A stretch of DNA of 64,000 nucleotides from the NCBI GenBank assembly GCA_043799715.1, contig JAZDNM010000003.1, positions 156,903 to 220,902 of the forward strand. The letters run 5' to 3'. Shown in pieces: positions 11,627 to 46,241 of the stretch. Numbering within the stretch: the stretch's first letter is position 1; every line of letters starts with the position of its first letter. The DNA is from an archaeon (GTDB taxonomy: Archaea; Nanobdellota; Nanobdellia; Pacearchaeales; DTIR01). The notes under the pieces are model-generated. The model ran no database searches and was not told the DNA's origin. It worked only from the letters and a program-made list of their open reading frames with translations. A program made the position numbers and the translations under genes.

Positions 11627-13681
11627 ATGAGAATGCTTGCTTTAATTTTTGCTCTTGTTTTGGCTTTTCCTTTTGTGAGCGCAGAGATAATTCTCCCGCA
11701 GCTGAATACTACTTATAATCTGAATGACGCCCTGTCTGTTGATGTATCTATAAATGAAAATAACCCTATTTCAGGGGGATTGCTGATTGTCAGCCTTGTG
11801 TGCCCTTCAGGGACAATTCCTTTTTATGCAAACGGCAATATAAATCTGGCAAAAGAGCAGGTTGGCAGGTTTGATGCTGTATGGAACAAAATATCAGGAG
11901 TTTCAGGAAGATGCTATGTCAAAGCAGAATTGGAATCTGAAACCGCAAGAACAGAAGAGTTTGTGATAACAGACAGGATTGATGTTTCTCTTGAATTAAG
12001 CAGCTTGGATGTTAATCCAAGTTCAAGCATGATTGTGAAAGGCGCTGCTGTGAAGGCAAATTCGCTTCCTGCAGAAGGAACTCTTGAGATAAGCGTTAAG
12101 GGGCTTGTGCAAAGCCAGTATGTTGCTGTTGAAAATGGCAGGTTTGCTGTGGAGATAAGCCTGCCGTCAGACACTCCTGCAGGGGATTATGAAATAAGCG
12201 CGGTTGTTTTTGAGAAAAATGAAGATAATGAGATAACAAACAGGGGAACTGCCCAGAAAAAGTTTACTGTTGTCTCTGTGCCTTCAGGGCTCAGCATAAG
12301 CCTTGATTCAGAGAAAATCATTCCAAATAAAACTATTGCAATAAAATCAACACTTTACGACCAGTCCTCTGAAGTTATCTACGAGCCTGTCAGCATAACA
12401 ATAAAAAACAGCGCAGGGGAAACTGTCCTTGCAAAGGATGTCCTGTCAGGCAGCATTGTTGAGTACAAAGTGGGAATGGTTCCTCCTGGAGAATGGAATA
12501 TAAAGGCATCTGCAAAAGAATTCGATTCAGCAAGGGCTTTTGTCATTCTTCCTTATGAAGATGCTGAGATAAGCATTTCCGGAAGCACAATTACAGTGAA
12601 AAATACAGGCAATGTGGACTACAAAAAAGAAATCTCAGCGACGATTACAAGTGAGAATGGAACAATGATGAATGTGACAAGAAATGTTAATATTGATGTT
12701 GGAAAAGAGGCAAAACTGCAGCTGCTCGCGCCCGAGGGTGTTTATAATGTTGAAATTTCAGGCGTAAAATTCAGCAGGATTCCACTGACAGGCGCTGTTT
12801 CAGCTTCCTTGAAACTGGAAAGCCAGCCAGGCATTCTGGCAAAATCCCCTGTTATCTCAGCCATGGTATTTTCCTTGATTGTCGCTATACTGCTTGTCTT
12901 TCAGTTCTTTGCAAGAGGTTCAAGAACTTACAAATCAGACAAAGGAACTGCTCCAGTTGTTCAAGTGCAGAAAATAAGCTCTGCTGTGAAAAATTCTCAG
13001 GAGATGCATAATGCAGAAAGTTTTGAGTCAGCAATAATTCCCCAGATGGCTTCAAATGCAAGAATAGCAGAGCCTTCACTTGTTATCCAAGGGCAGAAAC
13101 AAAATGCATCTATCCTCTATCTTAAGTTAAAGAACCTGCCTGAAATCAGGGAAAAAATTTCAGTCTTGGCAGCAGAATCCCTTGAAAAATTAGCTGAGAG
13201 GGCTTTTGTAAATTCCGCAGGAAGTTTTGGGGGAGCTGTTCACAGAATAAGCAGTTCAGAAATGCTTGCTGTGTTTTCCCCTATGACAAGGCAGTTCAGG
13301 CATGAGAGTTCTGCGGTCAGGGCGGCATTGAAAATAGATTCTGAATTAAAAACAAACAACAAGAAGTACAGAGACAAGGCGGATTATGGCATAGGCATAG
13401 GTTCAGGAGAAATTGCATTAAGCATAAACCGCAAAAAAATTCTCCAGTACACTTCAATAGGAAACACTATCACGCTTGCAAGAAAACTTGCTGAGAGGTC
13501 TTCAAGGGAGATAGTCATGAGCAAGGAAGTTTACAACAGAATTATAAATGAAGTTAGGGCAAGAGCCGCAGGAACGCTGATTCTTGGAAGTGAAGAAATT
13601 GAATGCTACGTCCTTGAAAGTTCAACAGGCAGGGAAGCTTACAGCTCTTATTTGCAAGATGCGCTTAGAAGGATTAAATAG
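11627..13681 (+). CDS. Receptor-like membrane protein: signal peptide, Ig-like extracellular repeats, one TM, cytoplasmic degenerate class III nucleotide-cyclase homology domain
   Basis: Signal MLALIFALVLAFPFVSA. TM SPVISAMVFSLIVAILLVFQFF. C-terminal region aligns by eye to the cyclase homology domain (GIGIGSGEIAL, YTSIGNTITLARKLAE), but both metal-binding Asp positions are replaced (LYLKLKN, ISSSEMLAVF). Confidence 0.65.
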   Translation: MRMLALIFALVLAFPFVSAEIILPQLNTTYNLNDALSVDVSINENNPISGGLLIVSLVCPSGTIPFYANGNINLAKEQVGRFDAVWNKISGVSGRCYVKAELESETARTEEFVITDRIDVSLELSSLDVNPSSSMIVKGAAVKANSLPAEGTLEISVKGLVQSQYVAVENGRFAVEISLPSDTPAGDYEISAVVFEKNEDNEITNRGTAQKKFTVVSVPSGLSISLDSEKIIPNKTIAIKSTLYDQSSEVIYEPVSITIKNSAGETVLAKDVLSGSIVEYKVGMVPPGEWNIKASAKEFDSARAFVILPYEDAEISISGSTITVKNTGNVDYKKEISATITSENGTMMNVTRNVNIDVGKEAKLQLLAPEGVYNVEISGVKFSRIPLTGAVSASLKLESQPGILAKSPVISAMVFSLIVAILLVFQFFARGSRTYKSDKGTAPVVQVQKISSAVKNSQEMHNAESFESAIIPQMASNARIAEPSLVIQGQKQNASILYLKLKNLPEIREKISVLAAESLEKLAERAFVNSAGSFGGAVHRISSSEMLAVFSPMTRQFRHESSAVRAALKIDSELKTNNKKYRDKADYGIGIGSGEIALSINRKKILQYTSIGNTITLARKLAERSSREIVMSKEVYNRIINEVRARAAGTLILGSEEIECYVLESSTGREAYSSYLQDALRRIK

Positions 13682-16879: not shown

Positions 16880-17806
16880 ATGGAGAAAAATTATGATGTC
16901 GTTATTCTCGGTGCAGGTCCTGCGGGGCTCTCTTCAGGGATTTATGCTGCAAGATTTGGACTGAAAACACTTGTGATAAGCAGGGATATAGGAGGCATGA
17001 TGAACATGGCTTCGCTTGTGGAGAATTATCCGGGTTTCAGAGGCAGCGGAATAGAGCTTGCAATGAAGATGTCTGAACAGGCTAAAAATGCAGGCGCAGA
17101 GATGCTTCAAAGGAATATAAGCAACATAACAAAACAGAAAAACTCATTTAAAATCCAGACAGACAAGAACGAAATATTTGATGCAAGAGCCCTTATCATC
17201 ACTCTCGGGACAGAAAAAAGAAAACTGAATATAGACGGAGAAGATAAATTTCTCGGCAGGGGCGTTAGCTATTGCGCTACATGCGATGCTCCGCTTTTCA
17301 AGGGAAAAGTTACAGTTGTTGTCGGAGGGAGAAATTCAGCAGCACATGCTGCATTGCTTCTGGCAAGATACGCAAAGAAAGTATATATTGTTTACAGGCA
17401 GGGCAGGCTTAACTGTGATACATTCCTTTTGGATGAGCTAAACAAGAATAAATCCATTGAAATAGTTTACAATTCACTTCCTGCCAGAATCAAGGGACAA
17501 GACTCTGTAACAGAATTGATTGTCAGCAGCGAAGGCAGCGAAAAATCAATAAGAACAGATGGAATTTTTGTTGAAATAGGCTCTGTGCCTTTGACAAGCC
17601 TGGCAAAGAACCTTGGCTTGAGCCTTGATGAGGCAGGCTATATCCTTGCTGATGATAAGATGAATACCAATGTTACAGGGATTTACGTTGCAGGGGATAT
17701 TGTTGCAGGAAGCCTCAAGCAGATGATAGTTGCTTCAGGGCAGGGAGCAATAGCAGCAAGCTCGGCATATAATTTTTTAAAGGATAATAACAAAAGTGAT
17801 AAATAG
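16880..17806 (+). CDS. trxB: Thioredoxin-reductase-like flavoprotein (low-Mr TrxR fold) with degenerate NADPH-binding motifs
   Basis: FAD motif GAGPAGLSSG and redox CATC. Second dinucleotide motif is GGRNSA instead of GGGNxA. HRRxxxR is replaced by YRQGRLN. Confidence 0.8.
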   Translation: MEKNYDVVILGAGPAGLSSGIYAARFGLKTLVISRDIGGMMNMASLVENYPGFRGSGIELAMKMSEQAKNAGAEMLQRNISNITKQKNSFKIQTDKNEIFDARALIITLGTEKRKLNIDGEDKFLGRGVSYCATCDAPLFKGKVTVVVGGRNSAAHAALLLARYAKKVYIVYRQGRLNCDTFLLDELNKNKSIEIVYNSLPARIKGQDSVTELIVSSEGSEKSIRTDGIFVEIGSVPLTSLAKNLGLSLDEAGYILADDKMNTNVTGIYVAGDIVAGSLKQMIVASGQGAIAASSAYNFLKDNNKSDK

Positions 17807-18898: not shown

Positions 18899-19201
18899 AT
18901 GAAAAGTTCTGCATATTACCCCTTTTTCAGGAAATTGGCTAATCCGCTAAGGATATCAATAATCACATCTCTCGCTAAAAAAGAAGAAACAGTGAGCCAG
19001 CTGAGCAGGGAGATTGGGGTTGAGCAAAGCAAGTTATCCCATGCTTTGCATGAATTGTCTGGATGCTCTATAGTCAAAGCAAGAAAAGAGGGAAAGAAAA
19101 GAATCTATTCAGTTAGCAGGACAATATTGCCCATTTTGAATTTGATTAATGTGCACAGCCAAAAATGCTGCAAGTACTGCGCTTATGGGGGGAAAAAATG
19201 A
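18899..19201 (+). CDS. ArsR/SmtB-family HTH regulator with C-terminal Cys cluster
   Basis: PLRISIITSLAKKEETVSQLSREIGVEQSKLSHALHEL HTH. C-terminal CCKYC. Stop overlaps the iscS start (ATGA). Confidence 0.7.
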   Translation: MKSSAYYPFFRKLANPLRISIITSLAKKEETVSQLSREIGVEQSKLSHALHELSGCSIVKARKEGKKRIYSVSRTILPILNLINVHSQKCCKYCAYGGKK

Positions 19202-20361
19202 ATCAAACAAATAGGATTTATATGGATAATGCAGCAACAACGCCTGTTGCAAAGGAAGTTGCAGATGCAATGCTGCCATTTTTCTCAGAGCATTTCGGGA
19301 ATGCGTCAAGCATCCACAAGGAAGGGCAGGATGCAAGAAGGGCAATCGAGGATAACAGGAGAAAAATCGCAAAGTTTCTCAATGCAAATGAGGAGGAGAT
19401 AATATTCACAGGCTCTGGCAGCGAGAGCAACAATACAGCAATCAAAGGGCTTGCCTTGTCACAGCTTGGCAGGCAGAAAAAGCATATCATAACAAGCAAA
19501 ATCGAGCATCACGCAGTTCTTGAGCCATGCGAATTTCTCAAGAAGCAGGGCTTTAAGGTTACTTATCTTGATGTTGACAGTTCTGGACTGATTAACTTGA
19601 AAGATTTAGAAAAGGCAATAACACCTTCAACTTTGCTTGTTTCAATAATGCATGCTAATAATGAAATTGGAACAGTACAGGACATTGCTGCAATAGGAAA
19701 AATATGCAAAAACAAGGGGACCTTATTTCATACTGATGCTGTCCAGACATTAGGAAAGATTCCAATTGATGTAAAAAAGATGAATATTGACTTCCTGTCT
19801 GCTTCAGCGCACAAGATTTATGGTCCAAAGGGAGTGGGATTGCTTTATATCAGGAAGGGCATTAAAATTGAACCATTGCTGCACGGTGGAGGGCAGGAGT
19901 TTGGATTAAGAAGCTCAACAGAAAATGTTTCAGGCATAGCTGGCTTTGGGAAAGCAGTTGAATTATGCAGGAAAAACATGAAATCTGATGCAGGCAGGAT
20001 TGGAAAATTAAGGGATATGCTGATGAAAGAAATTCTAAAAATTCCCAATACAAGATTGAATGGGCATGCGAAACAAAGACTCTATAACAACACAAACTTT
20101 TCATTCCACGGAATAGAAGGCGAGTCACTTGTTATGCATCTTGATATGCAGGGCATAGCAGCATCAACTGGCAGCGCATGCTCGACAAAATCATTAAAGC
20201 CAAGCCATGTCCTTACTGCTATTGGCTTGGACCATGTCACTGCTCATGGCTCATTGAGATTAAGCATAGGAAGAAATGCAGCAGAAAAAGATATAATCTA
20301 CACAGTCCAATCTGTCAGGGAGATTGTTGAAAATTTAAGAAAGATAAGTCCTATAAATTGA
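19198..20361 (+). CDS. iscS: Cysteine desulfurase (NifS/IscS class)
   Basis: IYMDNAATTP N-terminus, PLP-Lys motif SASAHKIYGPKG, active-site loop STGSACS. Start moved from 19165 to ATG 19198, which overlaps the arsR stop. Confidence 0.9.
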   Translation: MNQTNRIYMDNAATTPVAKEVADAMLPFFSEHFGNASSIHKEGQDARRAIEDNRRKIAKFLNANEEEIIFTGSGSESNNTAIKGLALSQLGRQKKHIITSKIEHHAVLEPCEFLKKQGFKVTYLDVDSSGLINLKDLEKAITPSTLLVSIMHANNEIGTVQDIAAIGKICKNKGTLFHTDAVQTLGKIPIDVKKMNIDFLSASAHKIYGPKGVGLLYIRKGIKIEPLLHGGGQEFGLRSSTENVSGIAGFGKAVELCRKNMKSDAGRIGKLRDMLMKEILKIPNTRLNGHAKQRLYNNTNFSFHGIEGESLVMHLDMQGIAASTGSACSTKSLKPSHVLTAIGLDHVTAHGSLRLSIGRNAAEKDIIYTVQSVREIVENLRKISPIN

Positions 20362-20377: not shown

Positions 20378-20614
20378 ATGAAAGCAAAATTAGGAACAAA
20401 AAAAGAAAGCGGAAAGATAACAGGCAATATGAGCTTTGCAGAAGTCATGCAAAAATATCCCGAAACAGCAGGGGTATTTATGAAACAGGGGATGTCCTGC
20501 TTTGGCTGCCCGATGGCTATGCAGGAGAGAATAGAGGAGGGTATTGCAGCCCATGGCAAGGATTCCAAAAAGATAATAGAAGAACTCAACAAAGCTGTAC
20601 AAAATAAAAAATGA
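20378..20614 (+). CDS. DUF1858 / hybrid-cluster-protein-associated redox disulfide protein
   Basis: MSFAEVMQKYPETAGVFMKQGMSCFGCPMAMQERIEEG matches the family signature (YPET..F...GM.C.GCP) as I recall it. Confidence 0.75.
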   Translation: MKAKLGTKKESGKITGNMSFAEVMQKYPETAGVFMKQGMSCFGCPMAMQERIEEGIAAHGKDSKKIIEELNKAVQNKK

Positions 20615-21213
20615 AAAATACCAAGAACATGGAAGAGAAGCTTATACAGATAGCAATAAAGCTCGCGAGAAGGGGAGAAGGCGGCTTGTTCATAGTTATT
20701 ACCGGAAAGAAGCCTGAATTCAGGAAGCTTGTAAAGCAGAATATCAAGCCTTTCAATATTCTTGAAGGCAAGAATGACAAATTGATTGAAAGCCTGGCAA
20801 CAATTGACGGGGCAGTTGTTGTAAACAAAGAGGGGAAAATGATTGCGTATGGAACCATGGTAAAGAGCAATATCCCTTTCAGGGGCTTCGGGACAAGGCA
20901 CGCCGCTGCATTAAGCGCTTCAAGGAATGGAAATATTTCAATTCTCAGTTCTGAAGAGGAGAGAAAAGTCAAGGTTTTCAGGAATGGAAGATACATAATG
21001 CAGCTTGATGCGCTTGAAAAAGGAATTGAAAAGAATGTTCCAAGGATAAGCACATTTTTTGAGAGTGTCGGAGCTGGTTTTCTTGGGACTCTGGGAGCAG
21101 CCACCTTGCTGCCTGGATTGGGCATAACAGTGATTCCGGGAGTTATAATATTTGGGAGTTCTTATTATGCAATCAAGTCCCTGATTGACAAATTAGGAGG
21201 CAAGAAAAAATAA
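20611..21213 (+). CDS. DisA_N/DAC-domain protein (putative diadenylate cyclase) with C-terminal membrane segment
   Basis: Aligns by eye to CdaA-type DAC: GGLFIVI, IDGAVVV (DGA motif), GFGTRHAAALSAS (RHR motif present as RHA), LSSEEERKVKVFRNG. C-terminal hydrophobic GAGFLGTLGAATLLPGLGITVIPGVIIFGSSYY. Start overlaps the upstream stop (ATGA). Confidence 0.7.
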   Translation: MKNTKNMEEKLIQIAIKLARRGEGGLFIVITGKKPEFRKLVKQNIKPFNILEGKNDKLIESLATIDGAVVVNKEGKMIAYGTMVKSNIPFRGFGTRHAAALSASRNGNISILSSEEERKVKVFRNGRYIMQLDALEKGIEKNVPRISTFFESVGAGFLGTLGAATLLPGLGITVIPGVIIFGSSYYAIKSLIDKLGGKKK

Positions 21214-21214
21214 G

Positions 21215-22804
21215 ATGACAAAAGAGAACATAAATTACAGCAAGAAGGTAATGCAGATGTTCATGAACCCGAAGAATGTAGGGGAAATAAAAAACGCTGA
21301 TGGCATTGGAAAGGTTGGAAATCCTGTATGCCTATTGCCGCAAGAGAAAATTCATTCCAATCCTGAATTGAAGAGCATTAATACTTTAAACAAAAAAGAT
21401 TTAGTTATGAGTCATCTAGGACACGATAAAATTATAGACATTTTTATTAGGAAATATAATGGGCGTGTAATAGAACTTAAAAATAAACTTGGGAGTATCA
21501 ATTTAACACCAGAGCATCTTGTCTTGGCTATTAAAATCCCCAGAGGTGATAGATTTAAGAGAAATAAAGGAAAAAAAACTCTAACTCCATCTTGGTATCA
21601 TGCTACAGATTTGAAAAAAAATGATATAGTGCTCTATCCTATTTTAAAAGAGGTCAAGGATATTGAATCTATCAAAATAGATATTTCAAGGGCGAAATAT
21701 GATTTTAGGAGTAAAAAAATTCCAAATAAAATTCCTATTAATGCTGATTTTCTGAGATTGGCAGGATATTATTTATCAGAAGGCGGTATATCCCTAAAAC
21801 CATGTAAAACATTTATTAACTTTACATTTAATATTAATGAAAAAGAATTCGTAGAGGATATCAGAAATATTAGCAGAAAAATATTTGATTTGGATATAAA
21901 AGTTAAGGAAATTCCTGAAAGGAAAACAATTCAGGTATTTATTTACAATGCTATTTTAGCAAGATTTTTTTATGATTTGTTTGGAAAAGGAGCAAAAAAT
22001 AAAAAGATTCCTAATTTTATGATATTTTTACCTGTTGAAAAGCAAAAAGAATTGCTTATTGGACTTTGGAGAGGGGATGGATATATCAATGTTAATAGGC
22101 CTGGTGCTAGAGCAGGTTTTGCTACTATTTCTTTTCAGTTGGCTCATCAAGTTAAACTAATATTATTAAGACAAAAAATAATTCCTTCAATATATACTGA
22201 TAAAGAACGGATAAGGGAAGGAGTTAAGCATGAAGAGAGTTACAGAATACATGTTGGACAGAGAGAATCTTTGAGAAAATTATGTTTTTTGTTTGGTTTA
22301 ACCTATATCCCAAAATCATACCCTTCTGTTGATAATTGGTTTGATAACAATTATTTGTATACCCCAATCACACAAATCAAAAATCGAAAGTTTTCTGGTG
22401 AGGTTTATAATTTAGAAATAGAAAAAGCACATTCCTTTACAACTGAAGGATTTTGCCTTCATAATTGCGGGGATTTGATGTTTATATATATAAAAGTTGG
22501 CAAGAAGAAAGGCAAAGAAGTTATTGACGATGTTAAGTTTAAGACATTCGGCTGCGCTGCAGCAATCGCAACTTCATCAATGATAACTGAACTTGCAAAA
22601 GGCAAAACTCTTGAAGAAGCAATGAAAATAACAAGAGGCAATGTTGCGGATTCGCTTGAAGGCCTGCCTCCAATAAAAATGCACTGCTCAAACCTTGCTG
22701 CAGATGCGCTGCATGAGGCAATAATTGATTATTACAAAAAGCAGGGAAGAAAAGATATGCTTGCCAGATATGCTTCACTTAAACCGCATGAGCACGAACA
22801 TTAA
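21215..22804 (+). CDS. iscU: IscU/NifU-type Fe-S scaffold interrupted by an intein (529-aa precursor, predicted 150-aa mature protein)
   Basis: N-extein YSKKVMQMFMNPKNVGEI..GKVGNPV. C-extein CGDLMFIYIKV..FKTFGCAAAIATSS..PIKMHCSNLAADALHEAI. The three cluster Cys and the invariant PxCGD are restored after removing residues 39-417. Confidence 0.9.
   Translation: MTKENINYSKKVMQMFMNPKNVGEIKNADGIGKVGNPVCLLPQEKIHSNPELKSINTLNKKDLVMSHLGHDKIIDIFIRKYNGRVIELKNKLGSINLTPEHLVLAIKIPRGDRFKRNKGKKTLTPSWYHATDLKKNDIVLYPILKEVKDIESIKIDISRAKYDFRSKKIPNKIPINADFLRLAGYYLSEGGISLKPCKTFINFTFNINEKEFVEDIRNISRKIFDLDIKVKEIPERKTIQVFIYNAILARFFYDLFGKGAKNKKIPNFMIFLPVEKQKELLIGLWRGDGYINVNRPGARAGFATISFQLAHQVKLILLRQKIIPSIYTDKERIREGVKHEESYRIHVGQRESLRKLCFLFGLTYIPKSYPSVDNWFDNNYLYTPITQIKNRKFSGEVYNLEIEKAHSFTTEGFCLHNCGDLMFIYIKVGKKKGKEVIDDVKFKTFGCAAAIATSSMITELAKGKTLEEAMKITRGNVADSLEGLPPIKMHCSNLAADALHEAIIDYYKKQGRKDMLARYASLKPHEHEH
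21329..22465 (+). mobile_element. Intein with LAGLIDADG homing-endonuclease domain (379 codons) inside iscU
   Basis: Cys1 (CLLPQEK), block B LTPEH, LAGLIDADG motifs LAGYYLSEGG and LLIGLWRGDGY, block F/G VYNLEIEKAHSF..GFCLHN, followed by +1 Cys of CGD. Confidence 0.85.
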
Positions 22805-24044: not shown

Positions 24045-24977
24045 ATGAGGCTGAAATATATTTTTTTATTCATTGTTCTGGCATTTTTTCTGCTTTTACT
24101 TGCATTCTTTATCAATGGCATTATTCCCCGCACTCAGCCCCCGGGGCTGAAGTTGAACATATCTGAAAATATTTCCCCTGATGTGAACGTATTTGTTCTT
24201 GACCAGTTCAGAAAAGGGATAACTTCCATTGAAACAAATGATGAGTTCTTTCCACAGCAAAAAGGATTAGCTGAAGGAACAGTTTATGGCTTTAGAGTAA
24301 TTGATGAGAAAGGAGAAGTAAGCATGCCGGTGTATGAAACATTCATTGCAAATTCGCCTGATTGGGAAGGATGGGAAACAGGAAAAAGGTATTATCATGG
24401 GCTTAGACCAAGCAATTATATAATTGAACTTTTAGTAATAAAAAATGGCATTGGGACTGTAACCGCAAGGACAAATCTGTCCTCATTCAGCTTATATGCG
24501 CAGCGCGCAGAGCTTGAAAAACTGATTCTTGATAATTGCAGCAGCTTAATGACTGAGCCTCTTGTTGACAGGGATGGCTGGTCCCGTGAAAGCAAAATTG
24601 CTACATGCGTTACAAAGATTGCAGTTGAACAGGGAAACATTGATGTTTGTAATCTATTGTTCAAGCTGTTTAATGCGACTAATACAGATGATTGTATCAG
24701 GGACTATGCAATTACCATGGGAGATACGTCTATATGCGACCTTACTGGCATGCCGAAGTCCAGGGGATTCTGCAAGGCAAAAATAACTCATGACTGGACA
24801 GAATGCAGAAAAATCTCGTGTGATATCTCGTGCGCCATGGAAGCGCTTGAGATACAGCAGGACTTATGCATCCAGTGGTATGCAATTGAGAATAGGAATG
24901 CCAGTCTTTGCAATGAGATAAAAAGCGAGGCGTATAACATGAAAGAAATCTGCCTGAAGATAACAGCAGAAAGTTGA
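24045..24977 (+). CDS. Hypothetical secreted protein with Cys-rich C-terminal repeats
   Basis: Signal/anchor IFLFIVLAFFLLLLAFFI. C-terminal half has repeated spaced Cys (IDVCNLL..DDCIRDYA..TSICDL..GFCKAKI..). Confidence 0.55.
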   Translation: MRLKYIFLFIVLAFFLLLLAFFINGIIPRTQPPGLKLNISENISPDVNVFVLDQFRKGITSIETNDEFFPQQKGLAEGTVYGFRVIDEKGEVSMPVYETFIANSPDWEGWETGKRYYHGLRPSNYIIELLVIKNGIGTVTARTNLSSFSLYAQRAELEKLILDNCSSLMTEPLVDRDGWSRESKIATCVTKIAVEQGNIDVCNLLFKLFNATNTDDCIRDYAITMGDTSICDLTGMPKSRGFCKAKITHDWTECRKISCDISCAMEALEIQQDLCIQWYAIENRNASLCNEIKSEAYNMKEICLKITAES

Positions 24978-25011: not shown

Positions 25012-26037
25012 TTATTTCCAAAAATTAAAGCCTTGCGGCGGGAACCTGTTCTCAACATCTACAGTAATGATATAAATGGGGCTTGATGTGGGGATGATAA
25101 TTTTTGCAGTTGTATGTGAAGGGACAATAATCTTGCTGTCATTTATTTCTGCGCCTTCCAAGGCAAGGCTGTTTAAATCAAGATCCTCCTTGTTCCCGAA
25201 TATTCTCAAGATGTTCATTGGCTTGTCATCGGAATTTGTTTCTTTTAATGTGTAAGTGAAATTATTGCCTGACATTTCAAGTAAAACCTCCTGCTTTGTC
25301 ATACTAGAATCATAAACAAAATAATTTCCGGGCCTTGCATCAATATTTTTCATGAATACGAAAGCAGAAAAGACAAGAACTATCGCAAAGAGGATTGAGA
25401 AGTTTGCCAATGCAGGATGATTCCTGAAAAATGGCGGCTTTGCCCTTGATGCTATGCCCTGCAAAAGCAGATAAGATGTTGAAATCAGCAAAAACATCAA
25501 AGATGGTCCGAATAGAAAAAATCCAATCAGACTCTGGTTTAAAGGCGGGGCGTAAAACAAAATCCCTTTAAATTCCCTAAAAAGACCCCAGCCAAACCCT
25601 GCAGCAAGAACAATAGCCAATATAAAACTAACAATCTCAAAGGATAGATGATGACTTTTTGATGCGATAAGATAAATTGAGACAACAACTGCCAGAATAA
25701 TTATCGGGAGAGTAATCAGATTTAACAGCAGGGGAATAGCGCTCAGGAAAAGTAATACTGCAATAAAAGAGCGGATGATTATATCTGAAATGGCTCTTGG
25801 CTCTATTTTTTTATCATTTGCATTAATAGCCCCGCCTACAAATTCTATGATGGTTTTTATTAATCCTATGATGAAAGTGAGGACACTGGCAAAAAAAATA
25901 ATGGAAGCAGCCGGCTGAACCTGTATCTTATTCATAAGAGCCTTGTTGCCCAGTGTGAAAAAGTCCAGCACGATTATGGAAACAGCTAAGAGCATCAGAT
26001 GATAACCCCTTTTGAATCTCATCCCTGTTAAAAACAA
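25012..26037 (-). CDS. Hypothetical polytopic membrane protein with C-terminal soluble domain
   Basis: About 7 hydrophobic helices across the first ~230 aa. No family motif recognised. Confidence 0.55.
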   Translation of the reverse strand: MFLTGMRFKRGYHLMLLAVSIIVLDFFTLGNKALMNKIQVQPAASIIFFASVLTFIIGLIKTIIEFVGGAINANDKKIEPRAISDIIIRSFIAVLLFLSAIPLLLNLITLPIIILAVVVSIYLIASKSHHLSFEIVSFILAIVLAAGFGWGLFREFKGILFYAPPLNQSLIGFFLFGPSLMFLLISTSYLLLQGIASRAKPPFFRNHPALANFSILFAIVLVFSAFVFMKNIDARPGNYFVYDSSMTKQEVLLEMSGNNFTYTLKETNSDDKPMNILRIFGNKEDLDLNSLALEGAEINDSKIIVPSHTTAKIIIPTSSPIYIITVDVENRFPPQGFNFWK

Positions 26038-29915: not shown

Positions 29916-30044
29916 GGACTCGTAGCTCAGCTTGGTAGAGCACCTGACTCTTAGAGCTTTCTCTTTCAAAAGAGAAACTTCGGAAAGAGAAATTAAATTG
30001 CTCGGGATATCAGGGTGTCGCGCGTTCAAATCGCGTCGAGTCCA
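29916..30044 (+). tRNA. tRNA-Lys(CUU) with ~55-nt intron at the canonical 37/38 position
   Basis: Acceptor GGACUCG/CGAGUCC, D arm GCUC..GAGC. Anticodon stem CCUGA/UCAGG with loop CU-CUU-A interrupted 29954-30008. T arm GCGCG-UUCAAAU-CGCGU, discriminator A. No encoded CCA. Splice borders approximate. Confidence 0.85.
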
Positions 30045-30920: not shown

Positions 30921-33900
30921 ATGGCAGAACTTCAAAATCAGGGGCATAATGAAATTGACAGGGAGCATTTGCTCGTCAAAAAATATCTTTCGCAGCATTC
31001 TCTTGTTGAGTCAAACATAACTTCTTTCAATAATTTTGTTGAAATACGCATGCAGGAGATTGTTAATGAGATAAGGGAATCCCTGCCTCAGGAGGATATA
31101 GAGATAAAATTAGGGAGGATAAAGCTGAAAGAGCCTTCAATAATAGAAGCTGACGGCTCTGTCAGGAGAATCTCGCCAACAGAGGCAAGGCTCAGAAGCC
31201 TGACATATTCAGCTCCTGTCATGCTTGAGATAACAATCAAGCAGGGTAATCAGACAGAGCAGCAGGATGTTGAGATAGGAAAAATTCCGGTTATAGTAAA
31301 GAGCAAATACTGCAATCTTTCAATAAAAAACAAGGTAGCAAAAAATAAGGACGAGACAGAGGATTACAATGACCCTTTAGACACCGGCGGATATTTCATA
31401 GTCAACGGCAATGAAAGAGTCATGGTAATGATTGAGGACTTGGCCCCGAACCAGTTCTTTATAGAGAAAAACGCAGCAGAAAAAATGATGCTCAGGATTT
31501 TCTCGCAGAGAGGCGCATACAGAATCCCAATCCAGCTAGACGAGGGCTCTGACGGAATAATAAATGTCTCATTCTCCAGGTTCAAGAATATCCCTATTGT
31601 CGTTATGCTCAAGGCTCTTGGGATGCTGAGAGATTCAGATATCTCCAAGTACATAGGAAAAGAGTCTGATGCATTGATTGTCAACCTTTACGAGTTCGCG
31701 AATATACAGAGCTCACAGGATGCAATGATGTTCATAGCTGAAAAAACAGCAATGCAGGGCACAAAAAAAGAAGTTATGGACAGGATAAAAGACAGAATAG
31801 ACCAGTATTTCCTGCCTCATGTAGGCACAAAGCAGGAGAATAGGGCAGGCAAAGCAATTACTCTATGCAAGCTCGCAAGGCAGTTCCTGACTGCAAAGGC
31901 AAATCCTGATTTTATCACAGACAAGGACCATTATGCAAACAAGCGTGTAAGGCTCTCGGGAGATTTATTGGCAGACCTTTTCAGGGTTAATCTATCAGCA
32001 TTGATAAGGGATATACAGCACAACTTGCAAAGAACACTGAGAAGAAAAAAAGCATACTCAATAAAAACACTCGCAAAATCAACATTATTCTCCCACAGGA
32101 TTGAATCTGCAATCGCAACAGGCAGCTGGATAGGCGAAAGAACAGGAGTAACGCAGAACATGGACAAGACAAATTATCTCGCTGTACTTTCACAGCTGCA
32201 GAGAGTCTCAAGCCTGCTCCCAGGAGAACAGGAGAATTTCCTTGCAAGAACACTTCATCCGACGCATTACGGAAGGTTCTGCCCTGTTGAAACACCTGAA
32301 GGAACTGAAATAGGGCTCAGAAAGAACCTTGCACTGCTTGCAAGAATAAGCACCGCAGTCGAACTTGACGAGAAGGAATTCTTAAAATTCATAGAGGGCA
32401 AAGGGCTTCAGAATTATGAAAAGGAGATTCAGGGGGAAAATGTATTTGATGTTTTTTACAACGGGCAGTTTATAGGATTTGTTAAAGAGCCTGAAAAATT
32501 TGTTTCTGCAATGAGAGAATCAAGAAGAACAGGGAAACTGCCTATTGAATTAAGCATACGCCTTGACAATACAAATGCTCTCGTTGTAATATCAACTGAA
32601 ACAGGCAGGGTTCTCAGGCCTCTGATTATCGCAAAGAACAGCGCAAGCATGCTTGCAGAGGAGCACATGGAAATGCTAAGAAACAACACACTCTCATGGA
32701 ACGACCTATTGAGCAATGGTGTTATTGAGTATCTCGACGCATCTGAAGAGGAGAATGCCCTTGTTGCACTGAATGAATCAGAGATTACAGCAGAGCACAC
32801 TCACCTTGAAGCTGACAAGATTGATTTGTTAGGACTGGTTACAAGCCTTGTTCCATTCGGCAATTACAATCAGGCATCAAGGCTTAATCGTGGAAGCAAG
32901 ACGCAAAAACAGGCGCTTGGATTGTACTCAGCAAATTTCTTATGCAAGATTGACACAGATGTTAATCTATTGCACTATCCGCAAAAGCCGATTGTAAGGA
33001 GCTTTATCTATGATACATTAAATATCTATCCGGCAGGACAGAATGTGGTTGTTGCTATCCTCACATATGAGGGATATAACCTTGAAGATGCTATTGTCAT
33101 AAACAAGGGCTCAATTGAAAGAGGCTTGGGAAGAAGCACTTACTTCAGGCCTTACAAAACAACCGAGCTTCATTATACAGGCGGGCTTTCAGATGAAATA
33201 TGCGTGCCAAGCAAAGATACAAGTGGATACAGGACAGAAACAAGCTACAGATTCCTTGAAGACGACGGCATTGCATACCCTGAAGCCAACCTCGACGAGA
33301 ATGAGGTAGTTATAGGCAAGACATCACCTCCAAAATTTCTGAGCGAAGCAGGGGAAATCGCAATAAAAGCAAGAAAAGAATCAAGCATGGCAATCAGGTC
33401 GGAAGAAAAAGGGACAGTTGATGCTGTTTTTGTAACTGCAGATGCAGAAGGCAACAGGATTGTACAAGTCAGGACAAGAAATGAAAGAATTCCTGAAATA
33501 GGCGACAAATTCTCAACTGCGCACGGGCAGAAAGGAGTAATAGGGGCGATAATCCCTGAAGAAGACATGCCCTTCACATCAAAAGGCGTAAGGCCTGACA
33601 TAATATTCAATCCTCACGGCATCCCAAGCAGAATGACCGTTGGTTATCTTCTCGAAATGATGTCAGGCAAGGCAGGAAGCCTGGCAGGCAAGAGCATTGA
33701 CGGAACAATGTTCTCTGGAACAAGCATATCTGAACTTGAGAAAGAGCTACAGAGTTCCGGGTTCAGATATGACGGAAAAGAAACAATGTTCAACGGCATA
33801 ACAGGAGAGATGTACGGAGTCAAAATTTACATAGGCGACATGTACTACTTAAGATTGAAATATATGGTTTCAAACAAGATGCATGCAAGAGCCCTTGGAA

Positions 33901-34232
33901 AAGTTACATTGCTGACAAGGCAGCCGATAGAAGGCAGAAGCAAGGGCGGGGCATTAAGGCTGGGAGAAATGGAGCAGCAGGCGCTTGTTGCGCACGGAGC
34001 ATCATTGCTGCTGAAAGAAAGATATGATTCAGACAAGGTTACTGTCCATGTATGCATAAAATGCGGGATTATGGCAATAAAAGACAACATTCACAATAAG
34101 ATTTACTGCCCTATATGCCAAAATTCTCCTGTTGAGCCTGTGCAGATTTCATACGCATTCAAACTGCTTGTTGATGAGTTGATTTCACTGCACATCCTTC
34201 CAAGATTTGAATTAAAAAACAAGTACGAATAA
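30921..34232 (+). CDS. rpoB: RNA polymerase subunit Rpo2 (RpoB), unsplit
   Basis: 1103 aa. GDKFSTAHGQKGV, LRLGEMEQQAL, C-terminal Zn ribbon CIKCG..CPIC. Confidence 0.95.
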   Translation: MAELQNQGHNEIDREHLLVKKYLSQHSLVESNITSFNNFVEIRMQEIVNEIRESLPQEDIEIKLGRIKLKEPSIIEADGSVRRISPTEARLRSLTYSAPVMLEITIKQGNQTEQQDVEIGKIPVIVKSKYCNLSIKNKVAKNKDETEDYNDPLDTGGYFIVNGNERVMVMIEDLAPNQFFIEKNAAEKMMLRIFSQRGAYRIPIQLDEGSDGIINVSFSRFKNIPIVVMLKALGMLRDSDISKYIGKESDALIVNLYEFANIQSSQDAMMFIAEKTAMQGTKKEVMDRIKDRIDQYFLPHVGTKQENRAGKAITLCKLARQFLTAKANPDFITDKDHYANKRVRLSGDLLADLFRVNLSALIRDIQHNLQRTLRRKKAYSIKTLAKSTLFSHRIESAIATGSWIGERTGVTQNMDKTNYLAVLSQLQRVSSLLPGEQENFLARTLHPTHYGRFCPVETPEGTEIGLRKNLALLARISTAVELDEKEFLKFIEGKGLQNYEKEIQGENVFDVFYNGQFIGFVKEPEKFVSAMRESRRTGKLPIELSIRLDNTNALVVISTETGRVLRPLIIAKNSASMLAEEHMEMLRNNTLSWNDLLSNGVIEYLDASEEENALVALNESEITAEHTHLEADKIDLLGLVTSLVPFGNYNQASRLNRGSKTQKQALGLYSANFLCKIDTDVNLLHYPQKPIVRSFIYDTLNIYPAGQNVVVAILTYEGYNLEDAIVINKGSIERGLGRSTYFRPYKTTELHYTGGLSDEICVPSKDTSGYRTETSYRFLEDDGIAYPEANLDENEVVIGKTSPPKFLSEAGEIAIKARKESSMAIRSEEKGTVDAVFVTADAEGNRIVQVRTRNERIPEIGDKFSTAHGQKGVIGAIIPEEDMPFTSKGVRPDIIFNPHGIPSRMTVGYLLEMMSGKAGSLAGKSIDGTMFSGTSISELEKELQSSGFRYDGKETMFNGITGEMYGVKIYIGDMYYLRLKYMVSNKMHARALGKVTLLTRQPIEGRSKGGALRLGEMEQQALVAHGASLLLKERYDSDKVTVHVCIKCGIMAIKDNIHNKIYCPICQNSPVEPVQISYAFKLLVDELISLHILPRFELKNKYE

Positions 34233-34238
34233 AAACAA

Positions 34239-37200
34239 ATGACAGAAGTAATAAGAAAACAAATTAAGAGCATAGGATTTGGTTTGATAAGTCCTGAAGA
34301 AATAAAGAAAATAGGCGTTGCAAAAATTGTCACGCCTGAACTTTATGACATGGATGGCTATCCTGTAGATGGCGGCTTGATGGATCTGAAGCTCGGTGCA
34401 ATCGACCCGGGAGTCAGATGCAGGACTTGCGGAGGCAGGCTGAAAGAATGCCTCGGGCACTTTGGTTTTATTGAACTGGCAAGGCCTCTTATGCATATAA
34501 AATATATCAGCATAATCGAAAGAGTCTTGAGAAGCACATGCCACTCATGCAGCAGGATTCTCCTTGCCCAAAAAGATATTGAGAAATACTCCGCTTTAAT
34601 AAGGATAAAAAAAGCAAAGGATGTAAAGAAATGCCCATATTGTAATGCAGTGCAGGAAAAAGTAAAACTTGAGAAGCCTACATCCTTCGTTGTCGGCAAG
34701 AAAAGAATATTCCCAACAGAAGTAAGGGCAAAGCTGAACAAGGTTTCTGAGGAAGATTTGAAGCTTCTTGGAATAAACCCAAAAACAGCAAAACCTGAAT
34801 GGGCTGTTTTGACTTTGCTTCTTGTGCCGCCTGTAACATCAAGGCCTTCAATAACCCTTGAAACAGGAGAAAGAAGCGAAGATGACTTGACTCATAAATT
34901 AAGTGATATAGTAAGGGCAAACCAGAGATTATGGGAGAACCTGAATGCAGGAGCGCCTGAAGTTATAATAGAAGACTTATGGGATTTGCTTCAGTATCAC
35001 GCAACAACATTTTTTGACAACTCTGTCCCGCAAATACCCCCTGCAAGGCACAGGAGCGGACAGCCGCTGAAAACAATAACTGAAAGAATAAAAGGAAAAC
35101 AGGGAAGAATAAGGCACAATCTCGCTGGCAAGAGAGTTAATTTCTCTGCAAGAAGTGTTATTTCCCCAGACCCTTCCATCCGATTAAATGAAGTAGGAAT
35201 TCCGCTTGAAACTGCAAAGATAATCACAGTTAATGAAACTGTCAACACAGTAAATATCAACTTATTAAAGAAACTTGTTCTTTCAAAAGAATATCCCGCT
35301 GCAAACTATATTGTAAGGCCTGATGGCAAGAGAAAAAGAATAACTCCTGACTTGCAGGAAGACTTGGCAGACGAGCTTGCTATAGGATATACAGTTGAAA
35401 GGCATTTAAGAGACGGAGATGTTCTCCTGTTCAACAGGCATCCTTCTCTTCATAAAATGAGCCTGATGGCACATTTTGCAAAAATACTTCCAGGCAAAAC
35501 TTTCAGGCTGCATCCTGCTGTAACATTCCCATACAACGCTGATTTTGATGGGGATGAGATGAATATACATTCGCCGCAGACAGAAGAGGCAAGGGCTGAA
35601 GCAAAAATCCTGCTTGAAGTTAACCAGCAGATGATATCCCCAAAGAACAATACAAATGTCCTTGGATGCATTGCAGACGCAATAACAGGTAATTACCTTC
35701 TGACAAACAGAAAGTTTACAAGAGAAGAAGCATGCCAACTCCTCATTGAGGCAGGCGCGGACATTAGTGAATTGAAGCATGCAACAGACGGCAAGGATGT
35801 TTTTTCAGCATTGATTCCGAAGATAGATTTTGCAAGGAGAACGAGAGCTTGCATGGGGCAGGACTGCAAGTACTATGACTCAAAATCCTCAGGAGAAGAA
35901 TGCTACAGGAACTGCAAGAAAGAGAACTGCCCTGATAATTCTTATTTGAAGATAGACAACGGCAAGCTTGTGTCAGGGATAATTGACAGCCACGCTTTTG
36001 GCGTTGAGGACAGCGTAATGCTCAAGATGCTTGATGTTAATGTTGGGAGAAACAAAACAATAGATGTTTTAAGGAAAATTTTCAGCCTTGGAAGTTTGTA
36101 TCTTTCAAGAAACGGATTCACAATATCCCTCGAAGATATCAAAGTAACTGATTCCATAAAAGAAATCACACAAAACACAATAAGGGAAGCTGAACGCAAG
36201 GTCAAGGAGATTATTGATTCTTATTCAAACAAGAGCCTTGAGCCTGTGCCTGGAAAAACACGCGAAGAAACAAGGGAAATCAAGATATTGCAAGTCTTAA
36301 ATGAAGTAAGAAGCAAAGTTGGAAATATTGTAAAGAGGGAAATGCCAAAAAACAACCCAACAAATACAATGATCCTGTCAGGAGCAGGGGGAAACACGGT
36401 TTATGTAACCCAGATGGCATGCTTGGTAGGGCAGCAGGCATTATGGGGCAAGAGAATAAATTTGGGATACAGCAACAGGACACTTTCATTTTTCAAGAAC
36501 AATGACTTGTCCCCTGTGGCAGGCGGATTTATCTATTCATCATTCCTCGAGGGATTAAAGCCCTATGAATTTTTCTTTGGGGCGATGACAGGAAGGGACT
36601 CGCTTATGGACACTGCATTAAGAACACCGCGTTCAGGATATTTATACAGAAGACTTGCCAATGCGCTTCAGGATTTGAAAATAGAATACGACGGGACAGT
36701 AAGGGACGCTTCAGGCAATGTTATACAGTTTGCATACGGCGATGACGGCAAGGACACAAGCAGGCTGCATCTTCCCAACAATAAGATTGCCCCTGCAGAA
36801 GCAATCGGCATAATTACAGCGCAGTCATTCGGAGAGCCATCAACACAGATGACCTTGAATGTTTTCCATTTTGCAGGAATTTCAGAAATGCAGGTTACAC
36901 TGGGTTTGCCGCGTTTAATTGAGATATTTGACGCAAGAAAGAAGCCATCCACTCCAGCCATGGAAATCCATTTGGACTCTGATTTCAACAATGAGGAATC
37001 TGCGAGGCTTACTGCCGAGAAGATAAAGGAAATAATGCTTAAGGACATTGCAGAATCAGTGACTGTAAATTTCACAAGCAAGAGAATAGATGTACTTCTT
37101 GACAAGAAGGCGCTTAAGCAAACACATGCATCAGCAGAAACAATCGTAAGGAGACTAAATGAGAAGAATTTCAAAGTCAAGATTGATGGGGACAGTATAG

Positions 37201-37784
37201 TAATGAAAGCAGAGGAACTTGATTTCAAGGGATTATACAAGCTAAAGGAAAAAATGAAGAACATAATTGTTTCAGGGATTGAAGGAATTAAGCAAGTCCT
37301 GCCTGTAAAGAGAGATGAGAGTTATGCAATCCTGACAGCAGGCTCAAATTTAAGGGAGATATTAGAAGTAAAAGGCGTTAATGCAGGCAAAACCACAACA
37401 AATGACCTTTTTGAAGTTGCTGAAGTCCTTGGCATAGAGGCTGCGAGGCAGTCAATAATAAACGAAACATTGAAAGTTATAGAATTTCAGGGGCTTGATA
37501 TAGATGAGAGGCATGTCAGGCTTGTCGCTGATGCAATGACTTCTTCAGGAGAGATAAAAGGCACAACAAGAATAGGCATAATAAACCAGAAGACCTCAAT
37601 TCTTGCAAGAGCATCTTTTGAAACACCAATAAAGCATTTCGTGAATGCAACATTAAAAAATCAGAGAGATGAGTTAGCCAGTGTTATTGAAAATGTAATT
37701 CTAAACCAGCCTGTGCCTGTAGGCACTGGCTTGCCGGGCTTGCTTGTTAAGATAACAGGCAAGTTAAATAAGGCGCAAGAGTAG
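34239..37784 (+). CDS. rpoA: RNA polymerase subunit Rpo1 encoded as one ORF (A' and A'' portions fused), 1181 aa
   Basis: N-terminal Zn motif CRTCGG..C.GHFG. Catalytic NADFDGDEMN (35535-35564). Bridge helix GAMTGRDSLMDTALRTPRSGYLYRRL. Then, in the same frame, the A''-type trigger loop AQSFGEPSTQMTLNVFHFAG (from about 36831) and the A'' C-terminal region. Confidence 0.9.
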   Translation: MTEVIRKQIKSIGFGLISPEEIKKIGVAKIVTPELYDMDGYPVDGGLMDLKLGAIDPGVRCRTCGGRLKECLGHFGFIELARPLMHIKYISIIERVLRSTCHSCSRILLAQKDIEKYSALIRIKKAKDVKKCPYCNAVQEKVKLEKPTSFVVGKKRIFPTEVRAKLNKVSEEDLKLLGINPKTAKPEWAVLTLLLVPPVTSRPSITLETGERSEDDLTHKLSDIVRANQRLWENLNAGAPEVIIEDLWDLLQYHATTFFDNSVPQIPPARHRSGQPLKTITERIKGKQGRIRHNLAGKRVNFSARSVISPDPSIRLNEVGIPLETAKIITVNETVNTVNINLLKKLVLSKEYPAANYIVRPDGKRKRITPDLQEDLADELAIGYTVERHLRDGDVLLFNRHPSLHKMSLMAHFAKILPGKTFRLHPAVTFPYNADFDGDEMNIHSPQTEEARAEAKILLEVNQQMISPKNNTNVLGCIADAITGNYLLTNRKFTREEACQLLIEAGADISELKHATDGKDVFSALIPKIDFARRTRACMGQDCKYYDSKSSGEECYRNCKKENCPDNSYLKIDNGKLVSGIIDSHAFGVEDSVMLKMLDVNVGRNKTIDVLRKIFSLGSLYLSRNGFTISLEDIKVTDSIKEITQNTIREAERKVKEIIDSYSNKSLEPVPGKTREETREIKILQVLNEVRSKVGNIVKREMPKNNPTNTMILSGAGGNTVYVTQMACLVGQQALWGKRINLGYSNRTLSFFKNNDLSPVAGGFIYSSFLEGLKPYEFFFGAMTGRDSLMDTALRTPRSGYLYRRLANALQDLKIEYDGTVRDASGNVIQFAYGDDGKDTSRLHLPNNKIAPAEAIGIITAQSFGEPSTQMTLNVFHFAGISEMQVTLGLPRLIEIFDARKKPSTPAMEIHLDSDFNNEESARLTAEKIKEIMLKDIAESVTVNFTSKRIDVLLDKKALKQTHASAETIVRRLNEKNFKVKIDGDSIVMKAEELDFKGLYKLKEKMKNIIVSGIEGIKQVLPVKRDESYAILTAGSNLREILEVKGVNAGKTTTNDLFEVAEVLGIEAARQSIINETLKVIEFQGLDIDERHVRLVADAMTSSGEIKGTTRIGIINQKTSILARASFETPIKHFVNATLKNQRDELASVIENVILNQPVPVGTGLPGLLVKITGKLNKAQE

Positions 37785-43411: not shown

Positions 43412-43592
43412 GCCCGGATGGCCCAATGGCAAGGCGCAAGGTTGCTAAAAGCCTTTCTTAACACAGAGGAAAGTAAAGCTTTCCTATGTCCCGAAAATCT
43501 GAAAAGATTTTCGCGAAGAAAGCTTTGGGAAAGAAACCACAAAAACCTTGTTTCTCGCAAGAGATTTGCAGGTTCGATTCCTGCTCCGGGCG
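43412..43592 (+). tRNA. tRNA-Ser(GCU), class II, with ~97-nt intron at 37/38
   Basis: Acceptor GCCCGGA/UCCGGGC. Anticodon stem CAAGG/CCUUG with loop UU-GCU-A interrupted about 43448-43544. Long variable arm UCUC-GCAA-GAGA. T arm GCAGG-UUCGAUU-CCUGC, discriminator G. Confidence 0.85.
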
Positions 43593-46151: not shown

Positions 46152-46241
46152 ATAAGGAATCATTATTTTGGATTTTATAAAAGCTTAGCTCAGGATTTTC
46201 CCAGGAAAAATGTTTAAAAATCTCTTATGCTGGGATTTATC

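Follow-up and report, generated by a model that had tools for sequence, protein, structure and literature searches.

We analysed a 64,000-nucleotide stretch of contig JAZDNM010000003.1 (GenBank assembly GCA_043799715.1), from an archaeon of the Pacearchaeales, and refer to this whole stretch as the window. At 21215..22804 on the plus strand, which also carries all other features of the gene given below, an uninterrupted 529-codon open reading frame (ORF) with an ATG start and a TAA stop encodes the iron-sulfur (Fe-S) cluster scaffold IscU, divided by an insert that we read as a LAGLIDADG intein. Residues 1–38 and 418–529 are IscU, and the 379 residues between them are the insert. The N-terminal part of IscU, or N-extein (21215..21328), ends in ...GKVGNPV and, once the insert is removed, takes up positions 2–31 of the Pfam NifU_N profile. 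The C-extein (22466..22804; coding 22466–22801, followed by the stop) takes up positions 32–125 and carries D420, C447, H490 and C491. The insert (21329..22465; residues 39–417), recognized as a class-1 intein with a homing endonuclease from its family matches, fold and composition, enters the G-N-P-x-C-G-D motif directly after Val38, so that the first cluster-ligand cysteine follows it. An earlier note, made by a model from the letters of the DNA, had placed the ORF and an insert of 379 codons at 21329–22465, and these coordinates proved exact.

Splicing blocks, fold and flanking IscU sequence

The insert opens with C39 (codon 21329..21331), the putative block A nucleophile (Cys1), within the heptapeptide CLLPQEK at residues 39–45. 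Block B, L-T-P-E-H (21503..21517; residues 97–101, including T98 and H101), is followed by two LAGLIDADG motifs. The first, LAGYYLSEGG (21758..21787; residues 182–191), has its predicted catalytic E189 at the end of a modelled helix spanning residues 177–189, and the second, LLIGLWRGDGY (22052..22084; residues 280–290), has its predicted catalytic D288 at the end of a modelled helix spanning residues 274–288. Blocks F and G (VYNLEIEKAHSF ... EGFCLHN; 22403..22465) close the insert with His416-Asn417, so that GFCLHN ends at residue 417 and the following codon (22466..22468) is that of the +1 cysteine, C418, in the CGD of residues 418–420. This residue would act twice, as the second nucleophile in splicing and, in IscU, as the first ligand of the Fe-S cluster. 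Cys1, TxxH, the terminal HN, the +1 Cys and the two LAGLIDADG motifs, all of which the earlier note had read from the translation, were located at the residues given above.

A comparison with profiles, also proposed beforehand, came out largely positive. Pfam LAGLIDADG_3 matched the insert (E = 2.6e-13), and NCBIfam TIGR01443 (intein_Cterm), which supports blocks F and G, scored 28.5 against a cut-off of 15.6; Pfam Intein_splicing reached 33.9 bits, slightly below its gathering score of 35.8. Partial NCBIfam matches led to curated intein-containing proteins (Tes, PolII large subunit, RecA, RpoA'', DnaB and GyrA), and a search of solved structures by sequence alone returned PI-PkoII as its sole match (E = 3e-4). 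The precursor was modelled with AlphaFold2 from a 60-sequence alignment of the IscU-intein family, with a predicted local distance difference test score (pLDDT) of 90 and a predicted template-modelling score (pTM) of 0.80. When this model was compared with the PDB by Foldseek, the TliVMA intein (7QSU) ranked first (E = 5e-23), with PI-SceI, PhoVMA, PI-PkoII and PI-PfuI behind it, and then IscU; further matches to the endonuclease were I-DmoI and I-Tsp061I. Residues 177–256 and 274–359 are modelled as two alpha-beta-beta-alpha-beta-beta-alpha half-domains, as in LAGLIDADG endonucleases. The fold and block evidence makes up for the sub-threshold Intein_splicing score, and in every respect of sequence and predicted fold that was tested the insert appears to be a class-1 LAGLIDADG intein.

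Conservation was read from the 60-sequence family alignment and from a 57-sequence alignment of inteins in multiple hosts. T98, H101, G184, E189, G287, G289, H416, N417 and C418 are invariant in the family, and D288 and G190 are at least 90% conserved. T98 and H101 are invariant in the multi-host alignment as well, and Cys1, H416-N417 and C418 are kept across inteins of other hosts too.

The deposited gene at this position, MFH0831522.1 (P0138; window 22355–22804), is a 149-residue "iron-sulfur cluster assembly scaffold protein" that consists of the last 37 intein residues and the C-extein; neither the N-extein nor the greater part of the intein is annotated, and the 529-residue precursor was absent from the protein collection searched. 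Such a fragment might point to a dead, non-splicing relic, with iscU disabled or the precursor serving some other role, as might the marginally low Intein_splicing score and the Asn of block F (VYNLE), a position that is commonly Asp in inteins. We consider a relic highly improbable. The truncated call starts at a TTG within the frame (codon 381, in the intein), which explains it, and the 529-codon frame is unbroken. All catalytic residues are present and invariant family-wide, and VYNLE is the family consensus and no lesion of the window copy. Among 154 highly conserved columns this copy differs from the family in 5, the same number as the median member, and so is no further from the consensus than that member.

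The flanks behave as one protein when joined. NifU_N matched the precursor in two stretches (E = 2e-39) and the 150-residue extein spliced in silico as one stretch (153 bits). The spliced extein also passed TIGR03419 (195.6 against a cut-off of 187.9), whereas the precursor stayed below it (177.8). Against a solved archaeal IscU (7C8M), the spliced extein aligned end-to-end (E = 1e-55) and gap-free across the junction, and the junction GKVGNPVCGDLM is identical in the two. C418 aligns with the Cys of VCGD in the solved IscU structures 7C8M, 4EB5 and 2Z7E, and in Foldseek comparisons the C-extein was 60–70% identical to IscU 4EB5_C and 7C8M. Aligned to solved IscU, the Fe-S ligand set is complete: C418 (C-G-D), D420, C447 (F-G-C) and H490-C491 (H-C-S). 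The depositors of 7C8M, 7C8N and 7C8O, the closest solved IscU, made D40A and H106A ligand variants, which mark C-G-D and H-C-S as ligand motifs and put the Cys of C-G-D two positions ahead of D40; thus C418 corresponds to the first ligand cysteine, and that it would serve as a cluster ligand follows from homology.

The earlier note had argued that the two exteins are collinear with IscU and yield a normal 150-residue protein on excision, that the insert sits exactly at the first cluster-ligand cysteine, and that the +1 nucleophile is itself a ligand. Alignment to intein-free archaeal IscU, the check it had named, bore out all three, the last by homology to IscU of the 7C8M type: the flanks align across the junction, and the spliced extein satisfies TIGR03419. 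In intein-free IscU/NifU such as Methanothrix IscU (7C8M) and the Archaeoglobus fulgidus IscS-IscU complex (4EB5), the genes are uninterrupted and the ligands are shared. It can reasonably be inferred that this iscU gene yields a functional scaffold only after splicing. No SufB- or SufC-type gene was found among the ORFs scanned, which cover only part of the window.

Distribution of the insertion site

A search with the precursor returned 1383 matches, and the best 120 clusters (at 90% identity) were examined. All 120 are 484–562 residues long, are 55–66% identical to the query and combine NifU_N with LAGLIDADG (and Intein_splicing). The same-site IscU intein is therefore an unrecognised family and not a singular case, because more than 120 clusters at 90% identity, mostly from DPANN archaea and drawn from NCBI, JGI, ENA and Logan assemblies, share the allele. 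When the intein by itself was searched exhaustively against cluster representatives at 50% identity, at least 18 IscU-hosted clusters, fragments included, were found. Every IscU-hosted cluster uses one site, G-N-P-x-C/...H-N/C-G-D. Cys1, the terminal HN and the +1 CGD are present in 121 of 121 sequences, the intein is 380 residues long in 112 of the 121 members, and Cys414, four residues upstream of the +1 Cys, is 81% conserved. Column conservation in the intein (0.71) is like that in the exteins (0.67–0.72).

This recurrence bears on whether the gene could be an assembly or binning artefact that joined an intein-containing gene to iscU. The window does come from a metagenome-assembled genome (MAG), and the intein is deviant in guanine-plus-cytosine (GC) content. 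However, the same in-frame architecture with exact junctions occurs in all of these independent clusters from four sources, and it recurs in syntenic loci of other assemblies, which leaves an artefact with a vanishingly small probability.

Members of the family are labelled "NifU-like", "scaffold protein" or "hypothetical protein", and the few with a named source are Pacearchaeota, Nanoarchaeota or "archaeon" MAGs. Among GTDB species genomes there are at least two carriers, one a Woesearchaeota MAG and one a Pacearchaeota MAG. The same-site intein also occurs in the single-cell genome "archaeon SCG-AAA382B04" (P0248; PTD94371.1) and in a cluster with a protein labelled as from an Elusimicrobiota, hence bacterial, MAG (P0400; MBI5554546.1). 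If the Elusimicrobiota binning is right, the allele crosses domains. Viruses were considered as carriers and rejected for the sampled data: the best 80 of 242 viral relatives are at most 33% identical, their coverage is mostly confined to the intein, and none lies in iscU.

Two custom hidden Markov models found no second intein of this family in the 64-kb window. Four of its genes, for NrdD (1559–3643), a thioredoxin-reductase-like Pyr_redox_2 protein (16880–17806), SMC (46227–49100) and a family B DNA polymerase (52193–54637), belong to kinds of protein that host inteins elsewhere and are intein-free here; relatives of this Pyr_redox_2 protein carry the inteins nearest to the IscU intein.

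The earlier note knew of no catalogued IscU insertion site. This held for the literature searched, outside which lay most subscription journals and InBase: it yielded no description of an intein in either IscU or NifU, and neither protein is named in the main text of the 2015/2016 intein census (PMC4760082). Nor did any curated NCBIfam family of intein-containing IscU match. The note's statement did not hold for public sequence data, where the allele is abundant. The element is thus of a known selfish kind, its IscU/NifU host is new to the searched literature, and its sequences were already public but unrecognised.

Intein hosts now include the IscU/NifU scaffold, with its first ligand cysteine as the insertion site. 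Since many DPANN archaea carry the intein, their Fe-S biogenesis by IscS-IscU would pass through a protein-splicing step. There is also a practical side: the precursor of the window falls below the NCBI NifU cut-off, precursors carry uninformative labels or, as in the source record of the window, are truncated, and an intein-aware IscU model would correct hundreds of gene calls.

Signs of mobility and a proposed splicing and homing cycle

Empty and filled sites occur side by side among close relatives. Intein-free IscU proteins match the spliced extein at 78–84% identity over its full length and share its unusual C-terminal tail (...LKPHEHEH), and the best intein-bearing relative by extein (81%) is below the closest intein-free one. 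The intein-free alleles that the earlier note had suggested looking for in related metagenome sequences were found at two loci, L006 and L007 (P0124), which have an empty site and the gene order of the window: IscS ... DUF1858 - DAC - IscU - ... - DUF2061 - DUF7343/TrmB. At two further loci with the same synteny, L008 and L009, the site is filled. A Logan contig (P0370, 292 residues) has a mini-intein at the same IscU site; it lacks the whole endonuclease domain, removed by a clean deletion, and retains both HINT halves, all splicing blocks and the junctions.

Inteins and exteins also have different histories. Their pairwise distances are weakly correlated (Mantel r = 0.26, Spearman 0.14), and individual pairs are discordant in both directions: in P0013 and P0073 the inteins differ by 10% and the exteins by 37%, whereas P0029 and P0033 differ by about 2% in their exteins and by 45% in their inteins. 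In the contigs of the latter pair (L090 and L091), the extein DNA is 88–89% identical and the downstream ThiF-flavoprotein-aconitase genes are 83% identical, but within the exact limits of the intein only 58% identity remains. Vertical co-inheritance of a fixed intein was rejected on the strength of such sharply discordant pairs and of the weak Mantel correlation. The two hosts are related and have 47–48% GC, and their near-identical iscU genes (L090 788–2329; L091 2650–4191) carry inteins that are only 55% identical.

Base composition sets the intein apart in the window. Its GC content is 0.292, where the exteins have 0.396 and the 1137-bp stretches of the window as a whole have 0.403 ± 0.021, and it is the lowest-GC stretch of that length in the 64 kb; at third codon positions (GC3) the values are 0.21 for the intein and 0.38 for the exteins. 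L008 and L009 show the same offset between intein and host. In low-GC MAGs of Woesearchaeota and Pacearchaeota, by contrast, the intein matches its host (0.286 vs. 0.287 and 0.261 vs. 0.274). Between the window and L008/L009, inteins are 59–61% identical and exteins 79% identical. The simplest reading is that these inteins were separately acquired from low-GC donors.

The endonuclease is maintained. Its part of the intein differs less between family members (p-distance 0.371) than the HINT part (0.446), and the conserved E189 and D288, the near-constant intein length and the median number of deviations in the window copy likewise point to constraint. On an extein tree, intein presence needs about 30 Fitch changes, as opposed to about 80 with shuffled labels, and thus is distributed patchily but in clusters; this was a numpy neighbour-joining tree, and its intein-bearing and intein-free sets were picked by different queries. 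Target-site resistance of intein-free alleles found no support at the protein level, G-N-P-x/C-G-D being the same in free and filled alleles. At extein position −2 (Pro37), Pro is replaced, mostly by Ile, in 34/121 intein-bearing and 7/119 intein-free alleles, which could mean that the junction has adapted to splicing, or only that these alleles cluster by descent.

From the empty and filled sites, the mini-intein, the discordant histories and the foreign GC content, the IscU intein appears to be mobile. We conclude that the window very probably holds an intact, currently mobile class-1 LAGLIDADG intein in a DPANN (Nanoarchaeia) iscU, placed just before the first ligand cysteine. The grounds are the observed architecture, residues, fold, distribution and signs of horizontal movement, from which we infer the splicing chemistry and DNA cleavage described below. 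Besides the Intein_splicing score, three points weigh against this conclusion. The intein of the window has no relative in the databases closer than about 61% identity, so no recent donor has been sampled. The low GC content could stem in part from a protein composition rich in Lys, Asn and Ile, though the difference in GC3 speaks against this as the sole cause. Finally, the count of gains and losses is only indicative, because the tree rests on about 131 columns.

The pathway of class-1 intein splicing is established, and applied to this gene it would run as follows. The 529-residue precursor would be translated, and the Cys39 thiol would attack the Val38 carbonyl in an N-S acyl shift; the N-extein would then be transferred to the Cys418 thiol. 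Cyclisation of Asn417, helped by His416, would free the intein, and an S-N shift would leave a native Val-Cys bond and a normal 150-residue IscU. Until then the precursor should be unable to build clusters, because a two-domain insert of 379 residues occupies the ligand loop beside D420. The freed intein would act as a site-specific endonuclease on intein-free iscU, cutting within the sequence that codes for G-N-P-x-C-G-D, with the cut expected at or near GGAAATCCTGTA/TGCGGGGAT, and recombinational repair would copy the intein into the cut allele. On this scheme the intein would persist across DPANN and some other lineages by its homing cycle and not through any need of the host. One insertion site with empty, full-length and mini-intein alleles and with signs of repeated invasion, in hosts of 26–48% GC, makes a good system for the study of intein turnover.

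Related inteins, a possible host benefit and the surrounding genes

The IscU intein shares its architecture with solved class-1 inteins: TliVMA and PhoVMA (7QSU, 7QSS, 7QST), PI-SceI (1VDE, 1LWS), PI-PkoII (2CW7) and PI-PfuI (1DQ3) have the same HINT domain split by a two-motif LAGLIDADG endonuclease, with Cys1, TxxH and the terminal HN in common (Foldseek E from 5e-23 to 1e-13). Sequence identity to them is only 12–17%, and their hosts are V/A-ATPase, DNA polymerase and ribonucleotide reductase, whereas the host here is a small metabolic scaffold. The nearest relatives outside IscU are LAGLIDADG inteins of uncultured lineages, which are 25–40% identical over the whole 379 residues and have the same blocks. 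They sit in thioredoxin-reductase-like Pyr_redox_2 proteins, glycosyltransferases, the PFOR beta subunit, radical SAM proteins, methyltransferases and DnaG; among these sequences, then, metabolic hosts are nothing out of the ordinary. What sets the IscU-hosted group apart from these relatives, which occupy other hosts and other sites, is that all of its members lie at G-N-P-x-C/G-D.

In function, the mycobacterial SufB intein comes closest. In Mycobacterium tuberculosis, this intein also lies within an Fe-S assembly protein, also uses Cys1 and a +1 Cys, and also makes cluster biogenesis by its system dependent on splicing. The SufB host belongs to the SUF system of mycobacteria, in contrast to the IscU/NifU scaffold paired with IscS in DPANN archaea, and in IscU, unlike SufB, the +1 Cys is itself a cluster ligand. 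Splicing of the M. tuberculosis SufB intein is reported to be redox-sensitive (Topilina 2015, cited in PMC4760082; PMC8891592), and the mycobacterial DnaB intein is another precedent (PMC6195587). By analogy, redox sensitivity of IscU-intein splicing, which the earlier note had raised, is a plausible speculation, and the IscU intein offers a second case beside SufB for asking whether redox state or the supply of iron and sulfur tunes splicing.

A further proposal is that the host has turned the intein into a post-translational switch. IscU maturation in DPANN archaea would then be gated: oxidation to a Cys39/Cys418 disulfide (perhaps involving Cys414), persulfidation by IscS or metal binding at Cys39, Cys414 or Cys418 would stall splicing, IscU supply would follow the redox state or the availability of iron and sulfur, and the intein would be kept partly for the benefit of its host. 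If true, redox or Fe-S status would feed back directly, at the post-translational level, on the amount of scaffold. It draws on the SufB and DnaB precedents, on the two nucleophiles being Cys in the entire family and Cys414 in most of it, on the +1 Cys doubling as the first cluster ligand, and on the position of the locus among redox and Fe-S genes. Cys at positions 1 and +1 is, however, common in ordinary inteins, and the conserved endonuclease, discordant phylogeny and foreign GC content are marks of a selfish element. Moreover, the intein is dispensable, since close syntenic relatives lack one. We therefore regard such a switch as unlikely and retain the mobile intein as the better explanation.

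The putative IscU partner, a class V aminotransferase of the IscS/NifS cysteine desulfurase type, is encoded at 19165..20361 on the plus strand (Pfam Aminotran_5, E = 4e-95), two genes upstream of iscU, and this order is repeated in L006, L008 and L009. Between the two, also on the plus strand, are genes for a DUF1858 protein (20378–20614; Pfam DUF1858, E = 7e-15) and a DAC-domain protein (20611–21213; Pfam DAC, E = 1e-11). The pair occupies the same position in L006 (4042–4962), L007, L008 (5168–5997) and L009 (5148–5997). The DUF1858 protein has a C-x-x-C motif. The DAC protein, of about 200 residues, is diadenylate-cyclase-like, with a DGA motif, RHA in place of the canonical RHR, and a C-terminal stretch that looks hydrophobic by eye; a cyclase-like gene thus lies inside the isc cluster.

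Elsewhere in the window, five ORFs of 310–684 residues (11627–13681, 24045–24977, 25012–26037, 54634–56004 and 56088–57533) had no Pfam match at E ≤ 1e-5 or 1e-6. RpoB, which is 67–76% identical to proteins named as Pacearchaeota, Nanoarchaeia or Nanoarchaeota and so places the organism among the DPANN Nanoarchaeia, is a single ORF of 1103 residues (30921–34232; source label B''), and the largest RNA polymerase subunit is likewise a single ORF (34239–37784; 1181 residues) that contains Rpb1 domains 1–5 and is not split into A' and A''. Rfam also matched tRNAs at 29916–30044 (129 nt) and 43412–43592 (181 nt) where ARAGORN made no call, and these two are probably intron-containing archaeal tRNAs.

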